Shown piece after piece: positions 3,912 to 45,397 of a stretch of 52,341 nt of DNA. Positions within the stretch are counted from its first letter, which is position 1. The number at the start of each line of letters is the position of its first letter. A program made the translations under genes and the position numbers. The notes beneath the pieces are model-generated. The model was given only the letters and a program-made list of their open reading frames with translations, searched no databases and had not been told where the DNA came from. Source of the DNA: a virus (taxonomy: Duplodnaviria > Heunggongvirae > Uroviricota > Caudoviricetes); the IMG/VR virus record IMGVR_UViG_3300013126_000013; one strand, written 5' to 3'.

Positions 3912-3990
3912 GATGATTGATCCTAAGTATATTCATAAGCTTAATAGCATTATACTCAGTTCGTAGGGTTTGTACACCAAAAAAGTGTGG

Positions 3991-4452
3991 TTAACCCAAA
4001 AAATTTGTCCAGGGTACCTGTGCGATGATAAAACCGATGATTGCCGCACCACCCATCACATACCACTTCCACTTCTCGAGAACTGCAATTCTTCCATCAA
4101 GTTCCTTGTGGTTATCTGCTATTTCTTTGATTGCCGCGAGCAACTCCTTGTGGTGTTTCTCGCGGTCAGCATAATTTTCGTCTTTCATATCCGATATTCT
4201 TTTGTGTAATAGGTCGACTTGTTTTTCAAAATCAGTTTTTCTTTCCGACATCGAAACCTTTAAGCCATCAATTTGTTGATCATGATTTTGTAACTTATTT
4301 TCATGAACAATTAACATCTTTGAAATGCTATTTGAGATTTCTGCCATCTTTTCGATAGCATCATCAATCTTACCGGAAAAGGTTTGAATTGCGCCAACGT
4401 CACGCTTAATGACTTCAACATCAGTCTTCAGCTTATTTAAATCATCGACCAT
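3991..4452 (-). CDS. Coiled-coil protein with C-terminal TM helix; holin/lysis accessory candidate
   Basis: Heptad-rich body ending LEKWKWYVMGGAAIIGFII; last gene of the lysis cassette. Confidence 0.5.
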   Translation of the reverse strand: MVDDLNKLKTDVEVIKRDVGAIQTFSGKIDDAIEKMAEISNSISKMLIVHENKLQNHDQQIDGLKVSMSERKTDFEKQVDLLHKRISDMKDENYADREKHHKELLAAIKEIADNHKELDGRIAVLEKWKWYVMGGAAIIGFIIAQVPWTNFLG

Positions 4453-23714: not shown

Positions 23715-23989
23715 TATTCTTCTCCTTTACGAATGCGTTCTAGCTTGAGACGAAACTCTGCGATTCGCTCAAGTCTGTTCGGCCACTTAATTAACTCTTG
23801 TTGCGGATTTTTTGACAGATTTGTAAGTAGTTTATCAATAGCGGTTTGCATCTTTTCGAGCCTAGATTTTAAATCTTCGTTCTCGACTAAAAGATTGTCT
23901 ATTTCTGATTGATTATAACTCAGGATCTCCTCGGTGTCAACCGTTGAGAAGCCGAAGTCGTCGTCGAAGTCTTTGATTGTATTAGACAA
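23714..23989 (-). CDS. Hypothetical coiled-coil protein
   Basis: DFDDDFGFS...IKWPNR..RI; probable TTG start overlapping the gp43 stop. Confidence 0.6.
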   Translation of the reverse strand: MSNTIKDFDDDFGFSTVDTEEILSYNQSEIDNLLVENEDLKSRLEKMQTAIDKLLTNLSKNPQQELIKWPNRLERIAEFRLKLERIRKGEE

Positions 23990-26498
23990 AGAAACTCTCC
24001 AGTGTGTTACGGTATTCAAGTTCCCAGTTGATAGCATCAGATACGAGCTTCAGAGGTTCTTTGAATGTTTTGTTGAATTGAGTATCATAGTCAATATAGC
24101 GATGAGCATTCAATTCTTTCGGTAGAAACTGTGGGAATGCAATCACATTTGATCCAAGAGTATTCGGCATCTTCAAATAACAGAACTTCACTTTGTTGCC
24201 GTCTTTGATCTCATCATCCCGAAGTTTTAGTTCTTTCACATGATGATTGTAAACAATAGCACCTCGAACATGAATAGGGCACCCGCTCTTTACAAGAGCA
24301 CCGCTGTCGCGCCACTTAGCGATTTCACTTACACCACGAGGGAAACTGACTTCTTCTGGTGCGAGACCTTTAAACACTTCGTAGAAGTTAGAAACGAACT
24401 TTTGAAGATCACTTTCAGATCCACTCAACATGATACGATAAGCTTCTTTGAACTTACCACGAACGACTGCTGGAGTTGAAGATTTAACAGCTTCGATGCC
24501 CATGATCTTGAGTTTAGGCTCAGCGTATTGAACGCCTTCTGAGTTATGAACATTCAGGATGTAACGCTTCTTTGCAGTCCAGATACCAGCATCTGCAATT
24601 GCTTCTCGCTTCATCACCATCGTATTCTTAAAAGCATTCTGTTGTTCGAACAGAATACCGTAAGCGTTCTCAAGAACCTTTTCAAACTTTTGGTCACATG
24701 CTTTATCGAGGAAAGCCACTGCATCTGCAGGTTTCACTTGCTTAACGAGTGGTGCCATGTTGAGATACAGAGAGTCGGTGTCCATATACAAAACATAATC
24801 AACTGCAGTGGTATTCATGATTTTGTTCATAGCAATATTCATGTGCTTCTCAGCCCAGCGAATAGACAGCTGGCCAGAAAGAGTAATTCCTTCTGCAATA
24901 CGAATATCGAAGTACCTAAAGTATTTATTACCCAAAGCGCCATAAAGCGAGTTCATAAGAATTTTAATTGCTTGCTGTGTATTATCAAGCTGGTTCATCT
25001 CTCGCTTTAGATCTTCGGCATGAGTCTCTTCATACTTTTGCTTTACTCCAAGCATTTGCTTCTTTGTTGCTTTACGTTCGGCATAGTAGCTTTCAATGAT
25101 CTCTGGTAGGAATCCTTGCTTGTCTTTCCTGAACATAGCACCGTTTGCAGCAACTGCTACGTTCATATCACGAATCTCTTGAGGCAGATCAACGCCCTTC
25201 AGATAGAAGTCAACGTCGCACGGCATGCCATATGAAGCGTTTTCAACAATCGTCTCAGGCGACATGTTGTATTGGACAATCGTCATCGGATATAGAGAGT
25301 TCAAGTCAAACGATACAACCCACTCGTGACGACCAACCTGAGGATCTTTCACATAACCACCAGGATACTCTGGGCGATGCTTTTCAGTTGATGGAGGAAT
25401 AGCAATATTCTTTTCACTCAGATATCGATAGATGATCGAATCCCAGATAGCAGTTGTGCCAAGAGTATCAGGATAGTTTACACCACCTTTATATGCGATA
25501 ATCAAAGCTAGTGCGAGAAGCCCGGTTTGTTCTTCGAGTTTGTCGACAAGAACGACGTCTCGAATGTTATAGTCGATAAACTTCTGGTGATCTCGTTCAT
25601 ACAGATTATGCAGCGAACCGTACTCTTCATACGATAGTTTTTTCTCGCCGAGGATTACGTGACAGATATGGTTCAACGAATATGACTCTTGTGGGCCGTA
25701 TACATAACCAAACTTTTGGAACAGATCCATGTAGTCGAGTTGCTGCACGCCATAGATCTCGAAGGTATCAAGCGACTTACCCTTTACGCCGATCTGACGG
25801 TAGTTTACAATGTTCCAAGGCGATAGCTTCTTTGACCAATCCTCATTGAGAATACGTTTGATTCGATTAATCAGATACGGAATATCGAAGAGTCGGACGT
25901 TCCAACCGGTGATAACATCTGGATAGTGTTCTTCCCAGTAAGTCAAGAACTTCATGAGAAGCTCGGCTTCGTTTGCACATTTCACATAACGAACCATACA
26001 ACCTTCCGGCACGGTTTCGCACTTAGACGAATCGTAGTTCTTCAAGCCCCATACGTGATAGATTGAGCTCTTGCTGTTCTTCATTGCAATAGAAGTAACA
26101 GGATACGCTGCTTGTTCTGGATATGGAAAGCCATCGTTAGATTGAACTTCGATGTCGATGTTACCAATCGCAACATGGCGAAGATCCGGCTTAATGTTTC
26201 CTGGAAACCGTTCATTGATGAACTGAGCTACATAGTTGCTATTGCCAAAGACTTTGAAGTTAGCAACATCGCTGTTCGTATCGATGAACTCTTTTGCATC
26301 ATTAATCGAGTCAAATTGAATCGGTTCGACTCGAGTCCCATCTAGAGCAGTCCATTCACCAGACCATCGGTCAGCAGACGTGCTTACATAGAATGTCGGA
26401 GAAAACTTTACTTTTTCATGAATACGAGAACCGTTGTCGGTGTATCCGCGATACAGAATGCTGCCACCCATGCGATGGACTGAAGTATAAAACGACAT
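23982..26498 (-). CDS. 43: Family B DNA polymerase (T4 gp43)
   Basis: DIEV exonuclease I motif, SFDLNSLYP, KILMNSLYGALG, YMDTDS, KKRY; C-terminal clamp peptide NTLESFF. Confidence 0.98.
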   Translation of the reverse strand: MSFYTSVHRMGGSILYRGYTDNGSRIHEKVKFSPTFYVSTSADRWSGEWTALDGTRVEPIQFDSINDAKEFIDTNSDVANFKVFGNSNYVAQFINERFPGNIKPDLRHVAIGNIDIEVQSNDGFPYPEQAAYPVTSIAMKNSKSSIYHVWGLKNYDSSKCETVPEGCMVRYVKCANEAELLMKFLTYWEEHYPDVITGWNVRLFDIPYLINRIKRILNEDWSKKLSPWNIVNYRQIGVKGKSLDTFEIYGVQQLDYMDLFQKFGYVYGPQESYSLNHICHVILGEKKLSYEEYGSLHNLYERDHQKFIDYNIRDVVLVDKLEEQTGLLALALIIAYKGGVNYPDTLGTTAIWDSIIYRYLSEKNIAIPPSTEKHRPEYPGGYVKDPQVGRHEWVVSFDLNSLYPMTIVQYNMSPETIVENASYGMPCDVDFYLKGVDLPQEIRDMNVAVAANGAMFRKDKQGFLPEIIESYYAERKATKKQMLGVKQKYEETHAEDLKREMNQLDNTQQAIKILMNSLYGALGNKYFRYFDIRIAEGITLSGQLSIRWAEKHMNIAMNKIMNTTAVDYVLYMDTDSLYLNMAPLVKQVKPADAVAFLDKACDQKFEKVLENAYGILFEQQNAFKNTMVMKREAIADAGIWTAKKRYILNVHNSEGVQYAEPKLKIMGIEAVKSSTPAVVRGKFKEAYRIMLSGSESDLQKFVSNFYEVFKGLAPEEVSFPRGVSEIAKWRDSGALVKSGCPIHVRGAIVYNHHVKELKLRDDEIKDGNKVKFCYLKMPNTLGSNVIAFPQFLPKELNAHRYIDYDTQFNKTFKEPLKLVSDAINWELEYRNTLESFFV

Positions 26499-28115: not shown

Positions 28116-29057
28116 TCATTTCCAATCAGATAATTCAGCCATCAGCGTAGCCATGGCTGCAGCTCGGTTGATCTCTGGATTTGCTACAAATGCTTCTTTG
28201 TATTCGTATTCGGCCAGAATGATGATAGCATTTGCAATTGAGGATGTGCTAACGATTTTAGTTGGGAGAATATCATACAATGCTCGATAGAGAGTCGAAG
28301 AATCAATATCAGAGTTCTCGCCGACCCATTTACGGACATCATTAAAACGCTTCTCTTTCAGTAGACCGATAAGAGATTCGATCGATTCAGAACCCTTGTT
28401 ACGAAGGATACCTGCATCAATACGACCTGTTGCAGCATACCGCTGCAACTCGTTTAGCACTCGACGCCAGTCCGGAAAGTAAGTGTTGATGAGTTCGGCT
28501 ACAGCTTTCTGTTCATACTCGACATTCTCAGCATCGAGAATGGTTAGCACTCGTTTAAAGAACTGTGCAGCAAGCTTAGGCCGATCACTCGTATTAATAC
28601 TAAAGTTCACCACAGAGCATCGAGACTGAAGAGGCTCGATGATACGATTTGCAAAGTTACAAGTAAGAATAAAGCCGCAGTTCTTCGAGAACTCTTCCAT
28701 AAAGTTACGAAGTGCTGGCTGAGTTGAGTTTGCATTGAGGTAGTCTGCCTCATCAAGGATGACGTATTTACGGCCACCAGAGAATGAAACAGTCGAAGCA
28801 AAGTTTTGAATATCAACTCGAAGTGTATCGATATTGCCGTTCATCGAGCCGTTGATGATGATATAATCGGCACCAAGCTCATCAAGCATTGCTCGAGCGA
28901 CTGTCGTCTTACCTACACCTGCTCGACCAGACAACAACAGGTTAGGCACGTTTCGGTCGTCAACAAACTTCTGAAAAGTATCCTTCAGATCTTTAGGTAG
29001 AATAGCTTCCTCGACGGTACGAGGACGGTACTTTTGCACCCACAAAAATTCTTCCAT
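28116..29057 (-). CDS. 44: Clamp loader large subunit (T4 gp44)
   Basis: LWVQKYRP, GRAGVGKTT, ILDEAD, LRNFMEEFS, PLQSRC, PDWRR.LNELQRY. Confidence 0.97.
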   Translation of the reverse strand: MEEFLWVQKYRPRTVEEAILPKDLKDTFQKFVDDRNVPNLLLSGRAGVGKTTVARAMLDELGADYIIINGSMNGNIDTLRVDIQNFASTVSFSGGRKYVILDEADYLNANSTQPALRNFMEEFSKNCGFILTCNFANRIIEPLQSRCSVVNFSINTSDRPKLAAQFFKRVLTILDAENVEYEQKAVAELINTYFPDWRRVLNELQRYAATGRIDAGILRNKGSESIESLIGLLKEKRFNDVRKWVGENSDIDSSTLYRALYDILPTKIVSTSSIANAIIILAEYEYKEAFVANPEINRAAAMATLMAELSDWK

Positions 29058-29074
29058 GTTCACTCCAATCATAA

Positions 29075-29335: not shown

Positions 29336-29986
29336 TTATTTTGCTTCGAGGGCGATAAAATATTCGGCTTTGCTCGACTTAAAATGAGCAAGACCTTTTG
29401 CTGAAAGTGAAACTTCATAGTCATGTGGCATGAGCTTCAGATTTTCGACCTTTACGATCATTCTGAACGGAGCAGCACCGGTGTTCTCAGCAATAATAAC
29501 ACTGTATGAGTCAGCCGTCGGATTTTTCGAGTCAACCGCAGACAAGGAAACATTCGACCCATCGCTGGTAAAAGCAACCTCAGACAGCTTAAGAACGCCG
29601 GATGCTTTAATAACAGAATCAAGGTCTTTCCACTTAACTGGAACTACTGCTTCTGGTGACGGGAAATTGATTTCTTTTTCGGGTGGAGCCACAACCATTG
29701 CTTCTGCCGCATAGGTATAAGATACTTTGCTTTTGCCTGAAGAGATAATAAATTTATCATCGGTGAACTCGACATCGGGGTCGTCAAACAAAGACAATGT
29801 TGCAAGGAACCGAGATAGGTCGTAAACCCGAGCAGAACCTTCGATATTCTCAGACACTGTAGCAGAAGCCATTACAGTCTTTTGTGGATGCATGGTGCGA
29901 ATAACAGACCCGGGTTTAAATACAAGCCCAGGATTAATCATCGAAAAGTTTTTCAATACACTAATAGTTTCATTACTAAATTTCAT
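29336..29986 (-). CDS. 45: Sliding clamp (T4 gp45)
   Basis: MKFS.ET..VLKNFS.IN, IYDL-like VYDLSRFL, YFIALE C-terminus. Confidence 0.95.
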   Translation of the reverse strand: MKFSNETISVLKNFSMINPGLVFKPGSVIRTMHPQKTVMASATVSENIEGSARVYDLSRFLATLSLFDDPDVEFTDDKFIISSGKSKVSYTYAAEAMVVAPPEKEINFPSPEAVVPVKWKDLDSVIKASGVLKLSEVAFTSDGSNVSLSAVDSKNPTADSYSVIIAENTGAAPFRMIVKVENLKLMPHDYEVSLSAKGLAHFKSSKAEYFIALEAK

Positions 29987-29988
29987 AA

Positions 29989-30921
29989 TCACTTACCCTT
30001 CTTCATGGCAGCGCGACGTTGCTGCCGGTTTAATTGTTGCATAGGTTTCACTATATCATCATTTTCTTTTGGTGTCAAATAGTTCTTTTGATTAGACGCA
30101 GCGCTTGCAGTCGGAGAAGTCTGAATCGCTGCCATTGCTGCAAGCGAACCACCAAAGGTATATGAACCAACGTGCTTCAACTGGATCCATGGGCAAAGCC
30201 ATACGTTAATACCAATTGCTCGAGCGTATTGACTAAACATGTAGTCTTCTGACAGATAACGCTTACTCTTCGGATCAATCACGCAGTCAAAGAACGCAGT
30301 GATTTCACGACTGCCGTCAAAGTGTTCGGTGCGTACGTGGTCTGGAATATAGCTAAGTTCTGGGTATGCTGCTGCATACTTCTCGAATACACTACGATGA
30401 ATCATCATGAAACCATTACCGCCTTCACGGATCTTTACGGGCTCATCAATTCGAAACGAAGTAGAGTTCTCATCGGGATTAAAGACATAATCGCCGACAA
30501 AGTTGTCAAGTTGGAACGGATTCGGGTCAGCAAATCCTTTTTCAACTGCAGTCTTAATCTTTTCCCAGGCGATCGTCTTTTTCGGATACGCCCCGGTAAT
30601 TACGCCATACTCATCTGCCGATTCACAAAGATGCATAAGAGTATAGACATCTTTATAATGGAATCCAATATCAGAATCGATAAACATAAGATGTGTGTAG
30701 TCTGACCGAAGGAATTCATCGACACAATAGTTACGAGCACGAGTAATGAGAGACTCATTAAACAAGTAGTAGAACTTTACATCAATATCATACTTAGCAC
30801 AACTCATCGCCAAATCATTTGTCGATTTAGTATACAACCCAGCGCAAGCACCGCCGTACATAGGTGTAGCAATAAAGAGCTTCTTCTTACGAAGCTTTTC
30901 GATTTCAATCTTAATTTCCAT
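29989..30921 (-). CDS. GT-A fold (GT2-like) glycosyltransferase
   Basis: LFIATPMYGG, ESLITRARN, LMFIDSDI (DxD), GFMMIHR.VF, YLSEDY.F, L.HVG. Confidence 0.7.
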   Translation of the reverse strand: MEIKIEIEKLRKKKLFIATPMYGGACAGLYTKSTNDLAMSCAKYDIDVKFYYLFNESLITRARNYCVDEFLRSDYTHLMFIDSDIGFHYKDVYTLMHLCESADEYGVITGAYPKKTIAWEKIKTAVEKGFADPNPFQLDNFVGDYVFNPDENSTSFRIDEPVKIREGGNGFMMIHRSVFEKYAAAYPELSYIPDHVRTEHFDGSREITAFFDCVIDPKSKRYLSEDYMFSQYARAIGINVWLCPWIQLKHVGSYTFGGSLAAMAAIQTSPTASAASNQKNYLTPKENDDIVKPMQQLNRQQRRAAMKKGK

Positions 30922-31343: not shown

Positions 31344-31978
31344 CGTGTAGGTTGTTCCATATCATTTTCGAGTCGAGCAATTGTTTGCAAACGAAGAATG
31401 TCCGCAGCAATATCGAAGCGGCTGTCATGATGGACAAATGTGCTGTTCCAATATTCCTCGTCAGCAAGAGGAATAAACCCGTTCTTCTTTGGGAAATTCA
31501 GCTTTGCATCAATCCATGTACGAGTATCACGAACAAGCCAAAACTTCAGAAGTTCACCGATTTCATCTTGGCGGCCAAAAACAGATGCCCATCTCTGGAG
31601 AATAATAGGATCGAATGAATTTGATCGAGACCACCAGTAGTTGATCTTACCTGCTTCCTTCAGATATTCGATGAAGTTGTCGATGAAAGTTTCGGCTCGT
31701 ATATCTGATTTGCTTGGGCGTAGTACTTTCTTTGCTTCTTCAGACTGAGACAACCACCAATCAAGATCACGCTGAGTATATTTAGCACCATGCTCTTGAA
31801 CTTGGTGAGCCATTTCAAGTTTGTCTTTGCGAGCAAGACTTACGATTTCTTCTAGAGTGTACGGGTTGTCAGAAGTAAAACGATCCCAATCAAATGCTAC
31901 ATAAGAGCATTCAAGCATTGGAATTTGAAACACATCCTGACCAAGGGTTTCAAAGTCGAAAATAAAGTGTTGGTTCAT
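31340..31978 (-). CDS. dexA: 3'-5' exonuclease A (DexA-like, DEDD)
   Basis: FIFDFETLG, WWLSQS.EA, WSRSNSFD..IL, FW.VRD.RT, HDS..D...D. Confidence 0.85.
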   Translation of the reverse strand: MNQHFIFDFETLGQDVFQIPMLECSYVAFDWDRFTSDNPYTLEEIVSLARKDKLEMAHQVQEHGAKYTQRDLDWWLSQSEEAKKVLRPSKSDIRAETFIDNFIEYLKEAGKINYWWSRSNSFDPIILQRWASVFGRQDEIGELLKFWLVRDTRTWIDAKLNFPKKNGFIPLADEEYWNSTFVHHDSRFDIAADILRLQTIARLENDMEQPTR

Positions 31979-33177
31979 TCGAAAAAGCTCTCAAGGGTGT
32001 TTTCAGCAGCGGTGAATTCCTCTGTCTGAGTTCCATTATACTGCAAAATATAATCAGTGTCAACCATTTTTCTTTGGCCATTGAGCACAGCAAGAACTTC
32101 CGTCGCCATATCAGTAGCAGTCTGAACAGGAACGTTTTGGCAGATGTGGTTAGCATTCTTTGGGCTAGCATCTACAAGCTCAAAGTTCTCCGGAAGACCC
32201 ATAATAGTCATGGCTTCGCGGTAGGTAATGAAGCGATCTTCATCAGGATGTGTAAGCATGATCGGATAGTGTCCTACAAAAGCGCCGATGCGATCCTTAG
32301 GGACAATTACACCTCTCCGCATGATGCTTCCGCCTTCTTCAAGCTTCTTGTACTTATAGAGGCACTTCTCAACTTCATCAGGGAATCCATTTGCTTTCAT
32401 CCAATCAGCAACTTGCTTGTAGTTGTGACCCATCTTTTCGATGTAACCGAAAGCGTCATTGCCACGAGCTGACGACGGATCAATCTCATGTGAGTGCTGT
32501 ACGTGAGTACGACCACCATGAATAGCCTCGAGGATGTACTTGTAGTACGGATTTTCAGATGGCTTCTTCTTATTGATCGGCTCATGCTGGAAGTTAGACT
32601 TCACATTACGAATGACTTCTTCAATTGGAGTGTAAGGACGATTGTAGTAATGCAAAAGTGGAGTCTGATTACCTTTCCAGAAGAAGTAGAAAGAACGTTC
32701 ACGAATCTGTGGAACGCCATGAAGCAAAGACTTCGTACGATAGACTGTCATCGTGTAGCCGTTCTCTTGTCCGATCTTTTTCAGGTTCTCACGAACGTTC
32801 TTACCGATCTTACCAGCAAAGCCGGGAGCATTCTCTCCCCAGAACACTTTTGGCTTATATTCGCCAAGGATGTACTTTGCAGTAATGTCCATCCACTTGT
32901 TGTTTTCATTATGATCGCCATAGCCATGGGACATCATAGACAACCCCGCGCACGGGCACACGGACGCAACCACATCCGCGCGCTCGGAAGGTGCTTGGCC
33001 TTTATCAAGAACGTAGTATGGAATAAGATTTTCGTAGTGATTCAGAATATGAGAGTCGTTTGCAGCAAAAGCTTCATATGACATGAAGTGGATAGGAGGA
33101 GAGCCGAAAGCTCTTTCCGATCCAATGGTTTCGCCGCCGATAAGAGGAACGATTGAAGCGTGGGTGAAGTTACTCAT
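31975..33177 (-). CDS. Divergent C5-cytosine DNA methyltransferase homolog with a C-terminal clamp peptide
   Basis: Motif IV CPCAGLS, VI GENAP, VIII PQIRER, IX ITYREAMTIMGLP, X ICQNVP; motif I is non-canonical (VPLIGG); ends NTLESFFE. Confidence 0.8.
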   Translation of the reverse strand: MSNFTHASIVPLIGGETIGSERAFGSPPIHFMSYEAFAANDSHILNHYENLIPYYVLDKGQAPSERADVVASVCPCAGLSMMSHGYGDHNENNKWMDITAKYILGEYKPKVFWGENAPGFAGKIGKNVRENLKKIGQENGYTMTVYRTKSLLHGVPQIRERSFYFFWKGNQTPLLHYYNRPYTPIEEVIRNVKSNFQHEPINKKKPSENPYYKYILEAIHGGRTHVQHSHEIDPSSARGNDAFGYIEKMGHNYKQVADWMKANGFPDEVEKCLYKYKKLEEGGSIMRRGVIVPKDRIGAFVGHYPIMLTHPDEDRFITYREAMTIMGLPENFELVDASPKNANHICQNVPVQTATDMATEVLAVLNGQRKMVDTDYILQYNGTQTEEFTAAENTLESFFE

Positions 33178-34180
33178 TCTTAAATTTTCTCGCTATAGCT
33201 AAGGCCGAGTTGACCGCTTGATGCATATCGAGATAAGCATAGAGGCCACAACGACCAATAAAGGTCGTATTGCTCGGAGTCATGGATTTGTACTTCTCAT
33301 ACAACTCTCGGTTCTTACCATCACGGTCTTTCACTGGATAGAACCGTTCGCGGTTGTTATCACGGTAATCGCATGGCTCTTCGTAAGTCAGAGTTGTGCA
33401 ATATTTATTGTCTCCGTGATGAGGCAGTTTCTTCCATTCAGTCACGCGAGTATATGAACCATCATTCGTGAAGTTGACGGTTGCAGTCGGCAAAACATGA
33501 GGGTTCGGCAGTGTCGTGGTATGAAACTTAATCGAACGATACGGAAGTTCACCATGAACGAAGTCAAAGTATTCATCAATCGGCATAGAGTTAAAAATAT
33601 GATCAAATAGATGGTCATAGTCTTTTGAATATTCGGTGTTAAGCTTAACAATGATGTTTGGGTGATCTAGTATGCTTGCAACCATCTCAGTGTAGCCATC
33701 TTTCGGCATAGCCTGATACTGATCATCGGGAAAGTACAGCTCGTTCATGTCATTACGAATCGGTACGCGATTGATGATGTCAGGATTCAGCTCGTCAAGT
33801 TCCATTCCCCACATCTTCTTAGTGTAAGGACGGAAGAAGATGTCAAGAACATTCTCTTCACCTACGATCTCTTTAGTTTCCTTATTCACTGGAAGCGTAA
33901 CGTATCGGCCATCGTCAAGTTGAGCCTTTACTTTATGTTTGTACTCTACCCACTCTGTAAAGCGGCTTAGATAATCAAACACTTCTTTGTTGTTTGTATG
34001 GAACAAGTGAGGACCGTATTCATGAACACGAATGCCATGAATGTTGGTGTAGTCATACGCGTTACCTGCAATATGACTACGCTTATCGAACACCCAGACT
34101 TTGTATTGCTCAGTTTCTGCAAGCTCACGAGCAATAGTGGCGCCGGACAAGCCAGCGCCAACTACGAGAATCTGTTTCAT
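33170..34180 (-). CDS. glf: UDP-galactopyranose mutase
   Basis: VVGAGLSG (FAD), HIAGNAYD, HEYGPHLFHT, YTKKMWG, RVPIR, YF.D.YQAMP..GY, LPYRS, TRVTEWK, FYPV, GRCG.YAYLDMHQ. Confidence 0.96.
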   Translation of the reverse strand: MKQILVVGAGLSGATIARELAETEQYKVWVFDKRSHIAGNAYDYTNIHGIRVHEYGPHLFHTNNKEVFDYLSRFTEWVEYKHKVKAQLDDGRYVTLPVNKETKEIVGEENVLDIFFRPYTKKMWGMELDELNPDIINRVPIRNDMNELYFPDDQYQAMPKDGYTEMVASILDHPNIIVKLNTEYSKDYDHLFDHIFNSMPIDEYFDFVHGELPYRSIKFHTTTLPNPHVLPTATVNFTNDGSYTRVTEWKKLPHHGDNKYCTTLTYEEPCDYRDNNRERFYPVKDRDGKNRELYEKYKSMTPSNTTFIGRCGLYAYLDMHQAVNSALAIARKFKNE

Positions 34181-35280
34181 GCTTCAAGGATCTTTCTCAG
34201 TTCTTCACGCTGAACTGCTTTATCAAGAGGATGGTTAGCATACAGTGCTTCTTTCTGAGCAGCGGCTGTAGCTTTCAGCTGAGTAACATCCATCGCTTCG
34301 ATATCAAGAACACGTAGACCGGCAATGGCTTCATCTTTATAATACACCATCATCTCTGGCTTGTCACCAATAATGATTGATCCAGCATCAGCAACCTGCA
34401 GAGGTCGAGCTCGCCACCAGCCAGAACCGGCATGGAAGTAACCTGGCATCAGACAACCCCATTGCTGTTCGAACACTTTCACCATCTCAGGTTCGGTCTT
34501 ACGCTCAGACTTGTACTTACCACGCTTTGCACCGAAGTACTCGATTTCCCATTGCCACTTCTCAGGGTTCTGTAGCTTCAGCCACTTACGAGTCTTCTCT
34601 TGAACAAGAGAAGCAAAGTTCCAGCGGAACAGTTTCTCTGGCTCTTCATTGAAGAACGAATCAAGCGTCGAAGTAACTACACCGGTGCCGTATCCGTTGT
34701 CAGCACGACGGTTCAAGTGATAAGGGTTCGGGTTGAACACATGAACCTTTGATTCTTCCCATCCAAGGTTCAGCAGAGAGATGTTTCCACCAGCAAAAGC
34801 ACTGACCAACAGTCGGTTCTGTTTCGACACGATGATTTTGCATGCATCAATATATGACTGATGATACTTCTTTACAGTCTCACGATCTTCTTTGCCTGCC
34901 CACAGATCGAACAGATAGTCACGATAGACTGAGTCGTCGCCGGCTACAAGGTCGTCGTGATACGTCTGGATAGCGCCATAAATCTGATTAAATTGCCAGT
35001 CATCAAATGCAATAATGCAATTCGGACGTGCGGCAACAGCATATAAACCGGACCAAATATGTTGGCAAAACGCTTGAATGCTGTGGATGTAAACGATTAC
35101 TTCATCATACGAGGATAGATCTTCACCAAGAGCAACTTCGCGTTGCTCGACTTCGTATCCCATATCTTCAAGGCAACGAATAACCGAATAATGGGATGGA
35201 ACAACTTGTAGTTGCTGCTTCAGATAGAAGTCTTTATTGCACTGCAACCGGTTCATACCGGTAATCAGAATCTTTTTCAT
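34177..35280 (-). CDS. GT-B DNA glycosyltransferase, distant T4 beta-glucosyltransferase-like
   Basis: Segments parallel to recalled T4 BGT: VPSHYSVIRCLEDMGYEV, YDEVIVYIHSIQAF, IEYFGAKR, WRARPLQVADAGSIII; internal STLDSFF clamp-like peptide. Confidence 0.7.
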   Translation of the reverse strand: MKKILITGMNRLQCNKDFYLKQQLQVVPSHYSVIRCLEDMGYEVEQREVALGEDLSSYDEVIVYIHSIQAFCQHIWSGLYAVAARPNCIIAFDDWQFNQIYGAIQTYHDDLVAGDDSVYRDYLFDLWAGKEDRETVKKYHQSYIDACKIIVSKQNRLLVSAFAGGNISLLNLGWEESKVHVFNPNPYHLNRRADNGYGTGVVTSTLDSFFNEEPEKLFRWNFASLVQEKTRKWLKLQNPEKWQWEIEYFGAKRGKYKSERKTEPEMVKVFEQQWGCLMPGYFHAGSGWWRARPLQVADAGSIIIGDKPEMMVYYKDEAIAGLRVLDIEAMDVTQLKATAAAQKEALYANHPLDKAVQREELRKILEA

Positions 35281-36137
35281 TTCAACTCCATAGTGTACGC
35301 CGAACGGCACATATCTTTCAAATCATGATCAATCTTAACATACTTTGATACAGTGTCAACAAGAAGTTTCGCTGGATCTCCAGAACGTCGAGGACCGAAC
35401 TCTACAGGAAAGTCGATACCAGTGACTTCCTTCATTGTATTTATGACCTCAAGATTTGAATATCCACGGCCAGAACCGATGCATTCGTATTTTGAATTTG
35501 CAGCGAGAGGAACACTTCTTACAATCGCTTCAGCAAGATCAATAACATGTACATAATCACGAACACACGTACCATCGTGTGTATCATAATCATTTCCAAA
35601 GATTACCATCTTGTCTCTCTTGCCAGCTGCAGCTTCTGCAGCAATTCGAATGATGTGGCTCGCTGGATATGGTTGGCCGAGCTCTCCGTCATTGCCCGCA
35701 ACGTTAAAAAACCGAAAGATAGAATATTCGGGCGCGATCTGTCGTACTGCTTCTTCGGCAATGATCTTCGACTTAGCGTAGGGTGAAATAGGATCGAACG
35801 CGCCGCCGGTCGAAGCAAAGATAAAATGATTGTACTTGAGACTCTGAAGAAGCTTAAGTGTACCATTCGTATTTACATCATAGTAAGACTCAGGCATTCT
35901 CATCGACTCTTCGACCGAAATAAGCGCAGCACAGTGAATTACAGCGTCATAATGATCAGTAATGTGAATATGTTCAGTGATATCTCCGTGGTGAATCGCA
36001 TTCACCATATGCTGAATCATTCCAGTATTCGGAGTAATGCGCTGATCGAGAGTATCGATAGTATAACCCTTACTATGAAGAGCTTTTACGATATGTGATC
36101 CAATATATCCACTTGCGCCAGTTACAAGTACTTTCAT
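35277..36137 (-). CDS. galE: UDP-glucose 4-epimerase (extended SDR)
   Basis: VTGASGYIGSH, VIHCAALISV.ES, FAST, PYAKSK, RFFNVAG, DGTCVRDYVHV.DLA. Confidence 0.92.
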   Translation of the reverse strand: MKVLVTGASGYIGSHIVKALHSKGYTIDTLDQRITPNTGMIQHMVNAIHHGDITEHIHITDHYDAVIHCAALISVEESMRMPESYYDVNTNGTLKLLQSLKYNHFIFASTGGAFDPISPYAKSKIIAEEAVRQIAPEYSIFRFFNVAGNDGELGQPYPASHIIRIAAEAAAGKRDKMVIFGNDYDTHDGTCVRDYVHVIDLAEAIVRSVPLAANSKYECIGSGRGYSNLEVINTMKEVTGIDFPVEFGPRRSGDPAKLLVDTVSKYVKIDHDLKDMCRSAYTMELK

Positions 36138-36504: not shown

Positions 36505-36925
36505 AATCTACTCCGGCTTCTGTAAAGAAAGATTCGCTTTGCATCCATGAATCAAGCCACTTACCGTCGATTTTTTGGTTTGGCATAACTACTCGGCGAA
36601 TGCCAACTTGAATAATACCTTTGGCACACTCAAAGCAAGTTGGAAGACCGTACACATACAACGTAGCACCATCAAGAGATACACCATTGTATGTAGCGTT
36701 ATAGATAGCATTCATCTCAGCATGAACTACATAACGGTACTTCGTCTCTCTATCGTTCAGGCGAGTAGGATCGTCTTTCAGACCACGAGGGAATCCGTTG
36801 AATCCTTGAGACAAGACCTGCCCCTTAGATCCAACGGTGACTGCACCGATCTTACTCGATGGATCTTTCGACCATTGAGCGATCTGATAAGCGAGTTTAA
36901 GATAACGGTGATCCCACTTGTTCAT
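36473..36925 (-). CDS. cd: dCMP deaminase
   Basis: SKDPS..IGAV, GFNGFPRG, VHAEMNAI, LPTCFECAK.IIQ.GI. Confidence 0.95.
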   Translation of the reverse strand: MNKWDHRYLKLAYQIAQWSKDPSSKIGAVTVGSKGQVLSQGFNGFPRGLKDDPTRLNDRETKYRYVVHAEMNAIYNATYNGVSLDGATLYVYGLPTCFECAKGIIQVGIRRVVMPNQKIDGKWLDSWMQSESFFTEAGVDFDFIDFDPGH

Positions 36926-37593
36926 TCAACTAATCCAAAGTGTCTTTCGTAGATGTGAAGGCTGCCAGCGGCCCAGATGATGTCACCTGGAGCATAACCA
37001 GTATCTTGAGCAACTTTATTCAACACATGTTCTTGCCATGCACGATCATTCTTGTAGCCAAAGATGGCGTCATTTGATCGCATCTGAACAATGGCATGAA
37101 CCTTGTCGTTGCGAACAAGATACTGTACAGAGTTCGTGCACATGAAGTCAGAGCGACCATTCTTATTGTAATCATACCACATTTGTGGCCGAGTGTAAAT
37201 CATAATTGCACGACGTGAGTCACGATTTTTCTTCAACTCAGCAACACAGTGTTCGTATTGATCACAATTGTCTTTGTGCCAGATTGCCCAGCCATAATTC
37301 GAATTGATCAGGCCGTCAGGATCGGCAACAGACATCCAGATCTGAGGAGGATTCGTTTCCTGTTTTACGCCGCCGGGAATGTCATTCACGTTAAGCGACA
37401 TAGACTTATACCACTCGAGCTCACGCTCGACGTAATCCCAGTTCACTTGACCAAAGATAGCGTCTTCGTCTGCAATGAAACTGGTGCCAATGAGTTCGAT
37501 CGTCTTCACACCGGTCTTATCAGTGACAAAGTCTCGTTTGTGTAGCTTGTCACGAAGCGCGATACGGATGTCTTGTACTCTATACTGTTTCAT
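36922..37593 (-). CDS. 42: dCMP hydroxymethylase (T4 gp42-like)
   Basis: DKTGVKTIE, RELEWYKS, INSNYGWAIW, DSRRAIMIYTRP, SDFMCTN (catalytic Cys), MRSND, GYKND (Asp for dCMP), GSLHIYERHF; closely follows the recalled T4 gp42 sequence. Confidence 0.93.
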   Translation of the reverse strand: MKQYRVQDIRIALRDKLHKRDFVTDKTGVKTIELIGTSFIADEDAIFGQVNWDYVERELEWYKSMSLNVNDIPGGVKQETNPPQIWMSVADPDGLINSNYGWAIWHKDNCDQYEHCVAELKKNRDSRRAIMIYTRPQMWYDYNKNGRSDFMCTNSVQYLVRNDKVHAIVQMRSNDAIFGYKNDRAWQEHVLNKVAQDTGYAPGDIIWAAGSLHIYERHFGLVE

Positions 37594-43718: not shown

Positions 43719-44779
43719 TAAAGACTCACTGCCTCTTGGTAAAGATCATGTAAAAATGTATTGATTCGTTCTTTATTCGTCTTTACTTCAAGGCTATCTA
43801 CATAGACACGGAGCAAAGACAATGTATCCTGTGCCTCATCAACAAGCTCGCCTTCATCGATGATGTCAAAGTTAAGGTGGTCTTCAACAACTTTGATGTC
43901 AGCAGCTCCGGCCGATTGAAGCTTGTCGATGAACAAATCAAAGATGTATGGGTTGTTCTTCTTCTTAACTATAACCTTAACGTAGGCAGATGTCAACATC
44001 GAAACATCAAGAGAGTCAATATCTTCAACGGTAAGGTCTGCATCATCATAGTCCAGCTTGTGGAAGATCGAGAATGGATTCTGAATGAACTCCATCTCAA
44101 GTGTTTCAGTATCAAAAATATGGAATCCGCGTTTACCTGCGTAGTCAGTCCAAGTCATCTCATACGGTGCACCGAGGTATGTGATGTTCTCGTGGCTTGA
44201 TGGGTGGTGATAGTGGCCAGAGTACACTGCAAGAAACTTCTTGAATTCACCTCGATCGAGACCGTGATCTGATACTTGTCCCTTCATCATCTCAAAACCA
44301 GCAAATTCGAAGTGACCCATTACGATCTTCGCCGTAGTTTCTTTGAAAGTTTTGAAAGAAACTTCCGCGTTGCTGGGGCAGATCCAAGGCGATAGCAGAA
44401 CATCACAAGTTCCAAGAGTAACAGTAACCGGCTCATGAGTGTAAACATTGTAGTTGTCATACTCCTTGAGTAGTAACTCCATCGTGTTGATTTCGTTCGT
44501 GTTCTTAAAATAAGTGGTATGATTGCCGACAACAGAATGTACAGTGATGCTACGTTCTTTCAGAGGCTCAAAGTACATTTGTTTGGCCCTGCGCAGAGTA
44601 ACGAAATTTATGTATTTGCGGCGGTCGAACGTGTCTCCAAGATCGAGAACCGTGTCAATACCACGAGCATCAAGTGTCGGGAAGAACACTTCGCGGTAAA
44701 ACTTTTCGTAGTAATCAAGGAACAGCAGGCTATCACCTCGAACACCAAAGTGTTGGTCAGTAATGACTGCTACCTTCAT
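43718..44779 (-). CDS. 47: Recombination nuclease subunit (T4 gp47, Mre11/SbcD-like)
   Basis: ITDQHFG, LGDTFDRRK, VGNH, GHFE, SGHYH, YLGAPY..TW.D. Confidence 0.97.
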   Translation of the reverse strand: MKVAVITDQHFGVRGDSLLFLDYYEKFYREVFFPTLDARGIDTVLDLGDTFDRRKYINFVTLRRAKQMYFEPLKERSITVHSVVGNHTTYFKNTNEINTMELLLKEYDNYNVYTHEPVTVTLGTCDVLLSPWICPSNAEVSFKTFKETTAKIVMGHFEFAGFEMMKGQVSDHGLDRGEFKKFLAVYSGHYHHPSSHENITYLGAPYEMTWTDYAGKRGFHIFDTETLEMEFIQNPFSIFHKLDYDDADLTVEDIDSLDVSMLTSAYVKVIVKKKNNPYIFDLFIDKLQSAGAADIKVVEDHLNFDIIDEGELVDEAQDTLSLLRVYVDSLEVKTNKERINTFLHDLYQEAVSL

Positions 44780-45339
44780 TCTTCGTCACCCATGAACTTT
44801 TCAAGACCCTTCTTCTTCGTAGAAGTCTTCTTCTTGCTTTCAATCTTTGCTTCATACTTTTCAACAAAGTCGTTCATACGGTCATTTGACATTTCACGCA
44901 TCGAGGCAGCGTTGAAGTCACTATCAACTCCGCGTTCGAATGCAGTATCTGAGATGAGAGAATTTTCCATCACTTTGTGACGAATGTATGTTTGCTTCTT
45001 TTCTTTATGAATGCGACGAATAAAAGCAAACCAAATGACCTGAGTGAAATATGCGAATGGGTTGCTCGACTTCTCAGGATCAAAGTTGTTAACACACATT
45101 ATCGCGTTCTCTAAACCATCTGCAATCATATCGTCACGATAAGTGTAGTTAATGAAGTTTGGCTTATATGCGAGTCTGTTTGCAATCTGGTAGAGGCATT
45201 CACCAATGTAGTTTGGAATACGTGGTGGCTCTTCACCACTGTCTTCTGCCTCACGTACAGCCTTTTTGTACCTGATCATTGCTTCAAGGAACTCAGCGTT
45301 GTTCACATAGTTCCGCTTTTTTCTCGGTGTAAGGGTCAT
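44776..45339 (-). CDS. 55: Late sigma factor (T4 gp55)
   Basis: NYVNN.EFL.A, YIGEC...IA, PNFINYTYRDDMI.DG.EN, FDPEKS.NPFAYFTQ; C-terminal LEKFM clamp-like peptide. Confidence 0.96.
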   Translation of the reverse strand: MTLTPRKKRNYVNNAEFLEAMIRYKKAVREAEDSGEEPPRIPNYIGECLYQIANRLAYKPNFINYTYRDDMIADGLENAIMCVNNFDPEKSSNPFAYFTQVIWFAFIRRIHKEKKQTYIRHKVMENSLISDTAFERGVDSDFNAASMREMSNDRMNDFVEKYEAKIESKKKTSTKKKGLEKFMGDEE

Positions 45340-45368
45340 TCTCCCTCCTTTTCTTGTTGTATTGACTA

Positions 45369-45397
45369 AGTATATCACGTACAAACAAAAATGTCAA
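45369..45397 (-). promoter_or_regulatory. sigma70-type promoter for 55-47-46
   Basis: TTGACA-N17-TATACT. Confidence 0.75.

Follow-up and report, generated by a model that had tools for sequence, protein, structure and literature searches.

The gp45 sliding clamp of phage T4 is bound at one and the same patch by the tails of gp43, gp33, and gp55 and by an internal loop of T4 DNA ligase (PMC6212786; PMC7892883). The gp43 tail EKASLDFLFG and the ligase loop EPEGLDFLFD both bind gp45, the latter with a Kd of 10.7 uM and with a solved structure (PDB 6DRT) (PMC6212786); the clamp-binding motif of gp55 is also C-terminal (PMC7892883). T4 alpha-glucosyltransferase (alpha-GT) co-purifies with gp45, while T4 beta-glucosyltransferase (beta-GT, BGT) does not (PMC13216743); the binding of alpha-GT goes back to Sommer et al. 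(2004), whose finding PMC13216743 cites and confirms anew. Hence, gp45 binding by a DNA glucosyltransferase is not new. Clamp binding by alpha-GT matters little for the alpha/beta glucosylation ratio in T4 (PMC13216743), so the effect of tethering may be modest.

A further parallel is DNMT1, a C5 DNA methyltransferase recruited to PCNA via a PIP-box (PMC9690074), i.e., an enzyme with the C5-methyltransferase fold brought to new DNA by a short clamp motif. The analogy with the locus described here is one of mechanism only, as the two clamps belong to different families, the motifs sit at different places, DNMT1 serves maintenance methylation, and the cytosines here are probably hydroxymethylated. 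In DNMT1, the clamp motif lies in the N-terminal region.

We analyzed a 52 kb stretch of DNA (the window) from an uncultured marine T4-like phage; a search of the phage collection for near-identical DNA gave no match to it. The relevant genes are listed in Table 1. The gp45 gene lies 2 kb from the gene of the methylase-like protein, so the presumed receptor is present in the window, and the phage carrying the tails encodes both the clamp and its loader. Alignments of gp45 with the RB69 (PDB 1b77/1b8h, E=8.7e-30) and T4 (1czd, E=4.8e-29) clamps start at residue 3, and the ATG at 29986 is the more probable start codon. The gp42-type enzyme matches deoxycytidylate hydroxymethylase far better than any thymidylate synthase (best E=2.5e-12); given this enzyme, the phage DNA most likely contains 5-hydroxymethylcytosine. 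The gene for UDP-galactopyranose mutase, a context of sugar-donor supply, sits between the genes of the glycosyltransferase (GT) and the methylase-like protein.

Table 1. Features of the window discussed in the text.
Feature	Coordinates	Strand	Evidence
PolB (gp43-type family B DNA polymerase)	23982..26498	-	Pfam DNA_pol_B 7e-30; phrog_262 E=0
gp44-type clamp-loader large subunit	28116..29072	-	Pfam AAA, Gp44_lid; phrog_168 1e-114
gp45 sliding clamp, presumed tail receptor	29336..29992	-	Pfam gp45-slide_C 6e-17; phrog_223 3e-70
C5-cytosine-methyltransferase-like protein	31975..33177	-	Pfam DNA_methylase 1.1e-19
NTLESFF heptapeptide of methylase-like protein	31981..32001	-	translation; identical to polymerase tail
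UDP-galactopyranose mutase (Glf)	33170..34180	-	Pfam GLF 2.8e-55
BGT-like GT-B glycosyltransferase (GT)	34177..35310	-	phrog_14998 1e-28; fold match to T4 BGT
dCMP hydroxymethylase (T4 gp42 type)	36922..37593	-	PDB 1b49/1b5e deoxycytidylate hydroxymethylase E=1.6e-84
gp55 late sigma factor	44776..45384	-	phrog_234 4.5e-59

The original prediction was that the polymerase and the methylase-like protein end in the same peptide, that the GT carries a related one between its domains, and that gp55 ends in LEKFM. The observations on the first three proteins stand. The translation and the raw sequence agree on the polymerase end ...YRNTLESFFV (NTLESFF at 23988–24008, NTLESFFV at 23985–24008); the methylase-like protein ends in ...AAENTLESFFE (NTLESFFE at 31978–32001); and STLDSFF occupies residues 214–220 of the GT (34651–34671), in the loop joining the two Rossmann domains of its GT-B fold. 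For gp55, LEKFM (44791–44805) is followed by four further residues, the real end being GLEKFMGDEE, a looser tail resembling the clamp motif. The heptapeptides of the polymerase (AAC ACA CTG GAG AGT TTC TTT) and of the methylase-like protein (AAC ACC CTT GAG AGC TTT TTC) agree at 7/7 residues, with 5/7 codons differing at the third position, so one is not a recent copy of the other at the DNA level, and recent DNA duplication as the origin of the identity is ruled out.

Shuffling the 79 ORF products of the window 5000 times gives, per proteome, an expectation for the pattern [ST]L[ED].FF of 0.05 occurrences overall and 0.0008 within the last eight residues. It is seen three times, two of them C-terminal; hence, chance does not explain it. 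A fourth six-frame match, TLDKFF, falls in a 38-aa ORF (3956–4072) overlapping a longer gene, and was dismissed as noise.

The methylase-like protein aligns with motifs IV, VI, and VIII of M.HhaI, its PCAGLS, GENAP, and QIRER being the counterparts of the Pro-Cys of motif IV, ENV of motif VI, and QxRxR of motif VIII. In a set of 121 orthologues (64–94% identical), CPCAGLS, GENAP, QxRERSFYFF, and NHICQNVPVQ are invariant; the motif I region reads VPLIGGE, is kept in 119–120 of the 121, and differs from the canonical FxGxG of the S-adenosylmethionine binding loop. Motifs IV, VI, and VIII would thus place the protein in the C5-cytosine DNA methyltransferase family (PF00145), with methyl transfer to C5 of cytosine in DNA as a putative activity.

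The protein consists of a catalytic core, a linker (about residues 389–393), and the terminal motif. Conservation of this motif among orthologues, on which the original prediction had staked itself, proved nearly complete: T-L-E-x-F-Φ (Φ, hydrophobic) stands at the extreme C-terminus in 119/121 orthologues, followed by zero or one residue in 115/121. Linker positions 389–393 are variable (2.2–3.2 bits), while the tail is nearly fixed (T394, 0.98; L395, 0.39; E396, 0.57; F398, 0.24 bits); judged by sequence, the tail is a conserved short linear motif behind a variable linker. In the window, and also in a related locus, L013, the polymerase tail matches the methylase tail at all seven residues. 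In another locus, L009, the polymerase ends in NNLDEFFG and the methylase in NNLDQFFS, so that both carry substitutions that are rare among the methylase orthologues (N at –1 in 7/121, D at +1 in 5/121). Distant homologues from S-TIM5 and Pseudoalteromonas phage XG4 (31–33% identical) have no tail, so the tail was added within a single clade; the XG4 polymerase ends in SLDDLFM. We also considered S-TIM5, with its tailless methylase homologue and no gp45 match, as a negative control, but it is a weak one, as an empty search shows nothing.

The same tail terminates other enzymes in related phages. Scanned in six frames, 148 kb of the 156 kb genome of C48C1, the closest cultured-type phage genome, yields [ST]L[ED].FF exactly three times, always C-terminal: in the polymerase (ATLEDFFG), in a Dam-type N6-methylase (STLDAFFG), and in a Tet_JBP dioxygenase (ISLEEFFV). 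We also surveyed 84 related loci and the window with a regular expression for the C-terminal motif, which matched 109 of 1743 ORFs, against 0–8 in a control with the tails chopped off. The matches include 71 methylase orthologues, 23 homologues of T4 DNA alpha-GT, and 9 polymerases. In the related loci, the tail ends seven kinds of proteins: the polymerase, Dam-type N6-methylases, Tet/JBP dioxygenases, alpha-GT homologues, a TET-associated GT (PF20691, 7e-22), a GT4 (PF00534, 4e-7), and a 5-hmdU DNA-kinase-like protein (PF18723, 2e-8). All tail-bearing proteins that could be named are either polymerases or belong to families described as DNA-acting; structural and metabolic proteins in the scanned C48C1 genome and related loci have no tail.

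The homology of the tail-bearing alpha-GT-like proteins (~474 aa) of related loci to T4 alpha-GT is full-length: their profile matches PDB 1xv5/1y6f with E=9e-34, profile positions 1–404 of 474 covering chain residues 2–399, and the protein of one locus (L076) matches PF11440 with 3.5e-31. An AF2 model of this family (12 sequences) was poor (pLDDT 54.7) and was set aside in favor of the profile match. T4 alpha-GT, a clamp-associated DNA glycosyltransferase of a hydroxymethylcytosine phage, has 400 aa and ends in ...KEQFDIITK without a polymerase-type tail, while most of the marine homologues add a C-terminal extension of ~70 residues ending in ATLEGFF.

The tails resemble those of T4 and RB69 gp43, gp55, and gp33 (clamp–peptide structure 1B8H for RB69) in being short hydrophobic–acidic peptides that close the protein behind a flexible linker, are carried by several proteins per phage, and occur with a clamp of the gp45 family encoded nearby; the polymerase tail of the window occupies the position homologous to the T4/RB69 gp43 tail. 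There are two differences. The tails here follow the consensus (S/T)-L-(E/D)-x-F-(F/L/I), compared to LDFLF or LFDMFDF in T4/RB69; and the carriers here are DNA-modifying enzymes (methylase-like, dioxygenase, GTs, DNA kinase-like) as putative binders, while those of T4/RB69 are replication and transcription factors.

Given the homology of the polymerase tail with that of T4/RB69, we consider it likely that the terminal T-L-E-x-F-Φ of the methylase-like protein is a gp43-type clamp motif docking on gp45. The tail, on its flexible variable linker, would enter the hydrophobic pocket of gp45 that the T4/RB69 polymerase tail uses. A gp45 trimer offers three such pockets and remains on DNA after loading, so the enzyme would stay, and act, on phage DNA that has just been replicated. 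Many DNA-modifying enzymes of the marine T4-like group probably use the same device after replication, and modification of DNA is thus probably tied physically to replication. The comparison shows where the motif lies, that it is conserved, and that it is restricted to the polymerase and to enzymes that modify DNA; from this we infer that it binds gp45 and that its carriers would act on nascent DNA, with any gain in speed, completeness, or self-specificity that this may bring.

The GT may dock in the same way through the motif within its loop, as T4 DNA ligase does, but this is much less certain. The AF2 model of the GT has a mean pLDDT of 91.6 (64 in block 211–220), and its top Foldseek matches are T4 BGT structures 1nzd, 1qkj, and 1j39 (E=8e-8 to 6e-7, TM 0.52–0.58, 12–14% identity), the best PDB match being 1nzd (E=7.8e-8). 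The model thus suggests a two-Rossmann-domain GT-B fold nearest T4 BGT, the likeness being one of fold: against Pfam the GT has no family at E<=0.01, BGT included, and is assigned to phrog_14998, whose function is unknown. The ligase is a direct precedent: a flexible loop within this folded enzyme bears, midway, a motif like the polymerase tail, which demonstrates that gp45 accepts such an internal motif (PMC6212786). The two cases differ in that the ligase loop is an insertion while the GT loop is the natural linker of two domains, and in that ligase binding is proven by a Kd, a crystal structure, and loop deletion, while the case for the GT consists of a similar sequence, uneven conservation, and a weak co-fold pass.

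The opposing explanation, which comes close to an even chance, is that only C-terminal tails dock, and that STLDSFF is a structural piece of the linker, i.e., a short amphipathic helix packing on the GT or gating the closure of its domains, whose resemblance to the tails is in part convergent hydrophobic patterning. Indeed, DSSP assigns a short helix to residues 217–220 of the model, and T4 BGT, the nearest fold, is the enzyme that does not co-purify with gp45. The expected conservation of the motif among GT orthologues holds for the closest ones and fails further out: Φ..FF is present in 27/30 closest orthologues and 48/121 overall (0.05% of control windows), and most orthologues at intermediate distance have lost it or keep a degenerate form. 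It decays to forms such as GLSAFA, NIMSFV, and GTASIF, with hydrophobicity kept. In the C48C1 homologue the loop is shortened and has no motif; Aeromonas phage 25 and Erwinia FBB1 have RL(R/D)EMGL in the GT, unlike their polymerase tails NLFDMFDI and SLFDIFDF. On the other hand, the loop is length-variable, gap-rich, and modeled with lower confidence than the rest of the protein; conservation in it peaks at F219 (1.18 bits); small-Φ-x-x-F-Φ with acidic residues behind it, a pattern shared with clamp motifs, survives in most variants; and the rarity of the strict motif in shuffled proteomes also speaks against a mere linker. Covariation of the GT loop with the tails within genomes (TLDSFF and TLESFF in the window, TFDDFF and TLVDFA in locus L096) gave too few and too noisy cases to be used. 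None of the related loci has both a BGT-like GT (internal motif) and an alpha-GT-like GT (terminal motif) upstream of its methylase gene.

Co-folding, suggested in the original prediction, leans toward docking, if weakly. Full-length GT with gp45 scored 0.38, compared to 0.04 for the best of three controls; at least 81% of the contacts are shared between runs, partner pLDDT is at least 83, and the verdict is weak support with no interface reported. The mark was passed by 58/80 solved complexes and 2/110 mismatched pairs; passes at 0.60 or below comprise 7/80 solved complexes and both mismatches, so that a low pass is more often wrong than right unless the pairing is likely beforehand. All in all, docking of the GT on gp45 via its internal motif appears about evenly balanced.

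As the phage encodes a dCMP hydroxymethylase, the C5 position of cytosine may already be occupied, and the substrate of a clamp-tethered C5-methylase-like enzyme is a puzzle. One bolder reading, which seems rather unlikely, is that the tail is a portable label for nascent-DNA enzymes sharing the gp45 trimer as an assembly line, and that the C5-methyltransferase-like protein is perhaps not a methylase, but a base-flipping or C5-covalent enzyme working on hydroxymethylcytosine beside a clamp-tethered galactofuranosyl-transferase.

Could the tails bind something other than gp45? Short, hydrophobic, acidic tails can be promiscuous, and the partner might be the single-strand binding protein, the clamp loader, or a protease, or the tail might be a packaging or degradation tag, with the enzymes not on the clamp at all. 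We regard this as improbable: the tail is common to the polymerase, where it stands at the site through which T4/RB69 gp43 bind gp45 (PMC6212786; RB69, 1b8h); its nameable carriers are confined to polymerases and DNA-acting families; and gp55 of the window has a looser version, like gp55 of T4. Recombination or gene conversion of 3' ends, or chance, with no function in the methylase, might be suggested by the seven-residue identity of the two tails, but we give it hardly any credence, as it is contradicted by the differing codons, the shuffle expectation, the persistence of the motif in nearly all orthologues behind a variable linker, and its presence at the ends of unrelated enzymes elsewhere.

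Our literature search, of incomplete coverage and thus leaving novelty unproven, found no paper on polymerase-type clamp tails for phage methylases, Tet/JBP enzymes, or glycosyltransferases. The known clients of gp45 are the polymerase, ligase, gp33, gp55, and alpha-GT; if docking on gp45 is true, this list gains methylases, Tet/JBP dioxygenases, several GT families, and a DNA-kinase-like protein. In a large group of ocean phages, hypermodification of DNA would then be linked to the clamp used in replication, as DNMT1 is to PCNA, which would account for modification that is restricted to phage DNA and fast enough to evade host nucleases. It also sharpens the question of the role of a C5-methylase-like enzyme in a hydroxymethylcytosine-producing phage. 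Finally, it provides a sequence rule for new DNA-modifying enzymes, also among unannotated genes: a C-terminus matching the tail of the phage's own polymerase.

The methylase-like protein, a C5-methyltransferase homologue, ends in AAENTLESFFE and the polymerase in YRNTLESFFV; they share NTLESFF at seven of seven residues, and the BGT-like glycosyltransferase (GT) has STLDSFF at residues 214–220. All three motifs lie where the original prediction placed them. Of the seven codons for the shared peptide, five have different third bases, hence, the identity is maintained at the protein level. Shuffling the window proteome 5000 times puts the chance expectation for the pattern [ST]L[ED].FF at 0.05 anywhere and 0.0008 at a C-terminus, vs. 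three observed occurrences, two of them terminal. The C-terminus of gp55 is GLEKFMGDEE, not LEKFM as had been claimed. TLDKFF is also seen in a 38-aa ORF (3956–4072, minus strand) overlapping a longer gene, most probably a coincidental hit in a frame that does not code.

Features of the window (all genes at 21–38 kb are on the minus strand)
Feature	Position	Strand	Match
DnaB-like helicase	21–38 kb region	-	
UvsX-type recombinase	21–38 kb region	-	
gp43 PolB	23982–26498	-	
Hsp20	21–38 kb region	-	
gp44 clamp loader	28116–29072	-	
gp45 clamp	29336–29992	-	RB69 gp45 (1b77/1b8h, E=9e-30); T4 gp45 (E=5e-29)
phrog_1574 protein, 310 aa	29989–30921	-	also weak Glyco_transf_21 (E=0.0019)
MazZ-like dNTP pyrophosphatase	21–38 kb region	-	
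DnaQ-like exonuclease	21–38 kb region	-	
C5-methyltransferase-like protein	31975–33177	-	
UDP-galactopyranose mutase (Glf)	33170–34180	-	
Glycosyltransferase (GT)	34177–35310	-	
Sugar epimerase	21–38 kb region	-	
Small UDG-fold protein	21–38 kb region	-	
dCMP deaminase	21–38 kb region	-	
Thymidylate-synthase-fold enzyme (T4 gp42-type dCMP hydroxymethylase)	36922–37593	-	PDB 1b49 (E=1.6e-84), vs. 2.5e-12 for thymidylate synthases
gp55	44776–45384	-	phrog_234 (4.5e-59)

The window belongs to an uncultured marine T4-like phage. The phage collection searched had no near-identical DNA, its nearest record being that of phage C48C1 (Kyanoviridae; polymerase identity 52%); the orthologous contigs were from marine metagenomes, TARA among them.

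A search of 5.8 billion proteins yielded 2459 relatives of the methylase-like protein, the best 120 of which (identity 64–94%, length about 400 residues) were analyzed together with the query. Φ-x-x-[FYW]-Φ (Φ, hydrophobic) lies at most four residues from the C-terminus in 119 of these 121 sequences, with zero or one trailing residue in 115, so the predicted conservation among methylase orthologues is borne out. The linker 389–393 is variable (column entropy 2.2–3.2 bits); entropies in the tail are 0.98 (T394), 0.39 (L395), 0.57 (E396), and 0.24 bits (F398), the position between E396 and F398 is free, and position 399 is Phe, Leu, or Ile. Such a variable linker with a conserved terminal motif resembles a flexibly tethered docking peptide. 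The catalytic core is also strongly constrained: CPCAGLS (motif IV), GENAP (VI), QxRERSFYFF (VIII), and NHICQNVPVQ (X) show no variation and can be aligned with the motifs of M.HhaI. In place of FxGxG, motif I has PLIGGE. Absence of the tail from the distant homologues in S-TIM5 and Pseudoalteromonas phage XG4 (polymerase C-terminus SLDDLFM) points to an appendage acquired in one clade.

In T4, the tails of gp43 (EKASLDFLFG), gp33, and gp55 and a loop inside DNA ligase share one binding site, a hydrophobic patch of gp45 (PMC6212786, PMC7892883). The window polymerase is homologous to T4 gp43 and its tail is the homologous end; by homology, the methylase tail would bind gp45. At one related locus (L009) the polymerase and methylase tails agree (NNLDEFFG and NNLDQFFS), with N at −1 seen in 7/121 and D at +1 in 5/121 methylase tails of the best 120 relatives plus the query; another locus (L089) has SLEDFF and SLEEFI. 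This within-genome agreement is only suggestive, because it amounts to a single clear event. The longest gp45 ORF has a GTG start at 29992; the RB69 and T4 alignments start two codons on, at ATG 29986, the likelier start. The stop of the phrog_1574 gene, directly upstream, overlaps the gp45 start; its product ends in a strongly basic stretch (RQQRRAAMKKGK), its orthologues at four related loci (L007–L010) also have Lys/Arg-rich C-terminal tails, and a tail of this kind may provide another means of staying attached to DNA.

The same tail occurs on other enzymes in relatives. Scanning 148 kb of the 156-kb C48C1 genome in six frames gave exactly three strict-motif matches, all C-terminal: the polymerase (ATLEDFFG), an adjacent Dam-type N6-methylase (PF02086; STLDAFFG), and a Tet_JBP dioxygenase (PF12851; ISLEEFFV) directly upstream of homologues of the window GT and Glf. 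Across 84 related loci and the window, a C-terminal regular expression matched 109 of 1743 ORFs, vs. 0–8 when 5–40 C-terminal residues were removed first. The matches include 71 methylase orthologues, nine polymerases, 23 AGT-like proteins (414–479 residues, ending in ATLEGFF or similar), and single cases of a TET-associated GT (PF20691, 7e-22; DTLESFFV), a GT4 (PF00534, 4e-7; SSLESFFE), and a 5-hmdU DNA-kinase-like protein (PF18723, 2e-8; STLEAFL). The AGT-like family is homologous over its whole length to T4 DNA alpha-glucosyltransferase (1xv5/1y6f, E=9e-34, profile positions 1–404 of 474); most members have about 70 additional residues ending in the motif, whereas the T4 enzyme ends at residue 400 (...KEQFDIITK) without a tail. 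All tail-bearing proteins that could be named are polymerases or members of enzyme families for which action on DNA after its replication has been described.

The kinase-like protein (L083, 4188–5261, plus strand; 357 aa, helical domain PF18723, 1.9e-8), whose locus also carries a methylase-like orthologue, is a hint that a relative carries out hypermodification of the thymidine type. Two unannotated proteins with tail-like C-terminal peptides, encoded directly upstream of methylase-like genes, one of 361 aa (L009, 8919–10004, plus strand; NSILDFFE; no match in a Pfam search) and one of 419 aa (L007, 8724–9983, plus strand; TLGLESFF; weak GT10 match, E=0.005), are candidate new DNA-modifying enzymes.

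The GT model is confident (AF2, pLDDT 91.6) and structurally closest to entries of T4 beta-glucosyltransferase (1nzd, E=7.8e-8, TM about 0.55), hence, the label "BGT-like" is correct as to fold, though no Pfam family matches. The motif is indeed inter-domain, between the last N-terminal-domain strand (189–192) and the first C-terminal-domain strand (227–233); here model confidence drops to 64 and the orthologue alignment is gappy. Several points favor an internal clamp motif. Φ..FF is present in this loop in 48/121 orthologues, vs. 0.05% of control windows, including 27/30 of the closest, where the expected conservation holds, and 14/31 of the most distant, so that conservation overall is patchy; many others retain small-Φ-x-x-F-Φ followed by acidic residues. 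By sequence, the GT loop also resembles that of T4 DNA ligase, whose polymerase-like motif in a flexible loop within the protein is accepted by gp45 (PMC6212786). Other points count against it: the loop of the C48C1 homologue lacks the motif, the homologues of Aeromonas phage 25 and Erwinia FBB1 have RL(R/D)EMGL there, a sequence unlike the tails of their polymerases (NLFDMFDI and SLFDIFDF), and the beta-GT of T4 was not co-purified with gp45 (PMC13216743). Co-folding of gp45 with the GT, both as alignments, gave "weak support" to the proposed binding (0.38 vs. 0.04 for the best of three controls), a score for the full-length GT with no interface reported; contacts agree in at least 81% between runs, and partner pLDDT is at least 83. 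The co-folding mark is attained by 58/80 solved complexes and 2/110 mismatched pairs, and at scores up to 0.60 by 7/80 solved complexes and both passing mismatches. The odds that the internal motif is a clamp motif are about even.

At the related loci (L007–L090), the slot between the dCMP deaminase and methylase-like genes holds a BGT-like GT with Glf, a tailed AGT-like GT, or other GTs, nucleotidyltransferases, or unknown proteins, between constant flanks (gp42-like, cd, methylase-like, exonuclease, gp45), and resembles an exchangeable sugar module. No locus has both a BGT-like GT, with the internal motif, and an AGT-like GT, with the terminal one, upstream of the methylase gene; the two are alternative cassettes. 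This alternation speaks for an internal clamp motif in the GT, but weakly, as many of the loci are short. Bacillus phage G (JN638751.1), not T4-like, encodes distant homologues of the methylase-like (gp301, 219402–220349; 25% identical) and AGT-like proteins (gp306, 223211–224575; 25.5% over 98% of the query), about 3 kb apart.

Since it encodes a gp42-type dCMP hydroxymethylase, the phage very likely makes hydroxymethylcytosine DNA. This enzyme coexists with a methylase-like protein whose catalytic motifs do not vary across 121 orthologues; cytosine C5 should already bear a hydroxymethyl group, which makes the chemistry and substrate of the latter a puzzle.

The clamp-binding tails of gp43, gp33, and gp55, the ligase loop, and binding of alpha-GT to gp45 are already known, and DNMT1 on PCNA has been described (PMC9690074); in the literature covered, which is incomplete, no paper was found on polymerase-type tails of phage methylases, Tet/JBP dioxygenases, glycosyltransferases, or DNA kinases. 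In T4, the glucosylation pattern depended more on expression level than on clamp binding of alpha-GT (PMC13216743). The proposal that clamp tethering would give self/non-self specificity is reasonable as a hypothesis. The window adds the seven-of-seven match on a C5-methylase-like enzyme of a hydroxymethylcytosine phage, an AGT-like family with an appended tail, and, for a GT of the BGT-like type, a candidate internal motif.
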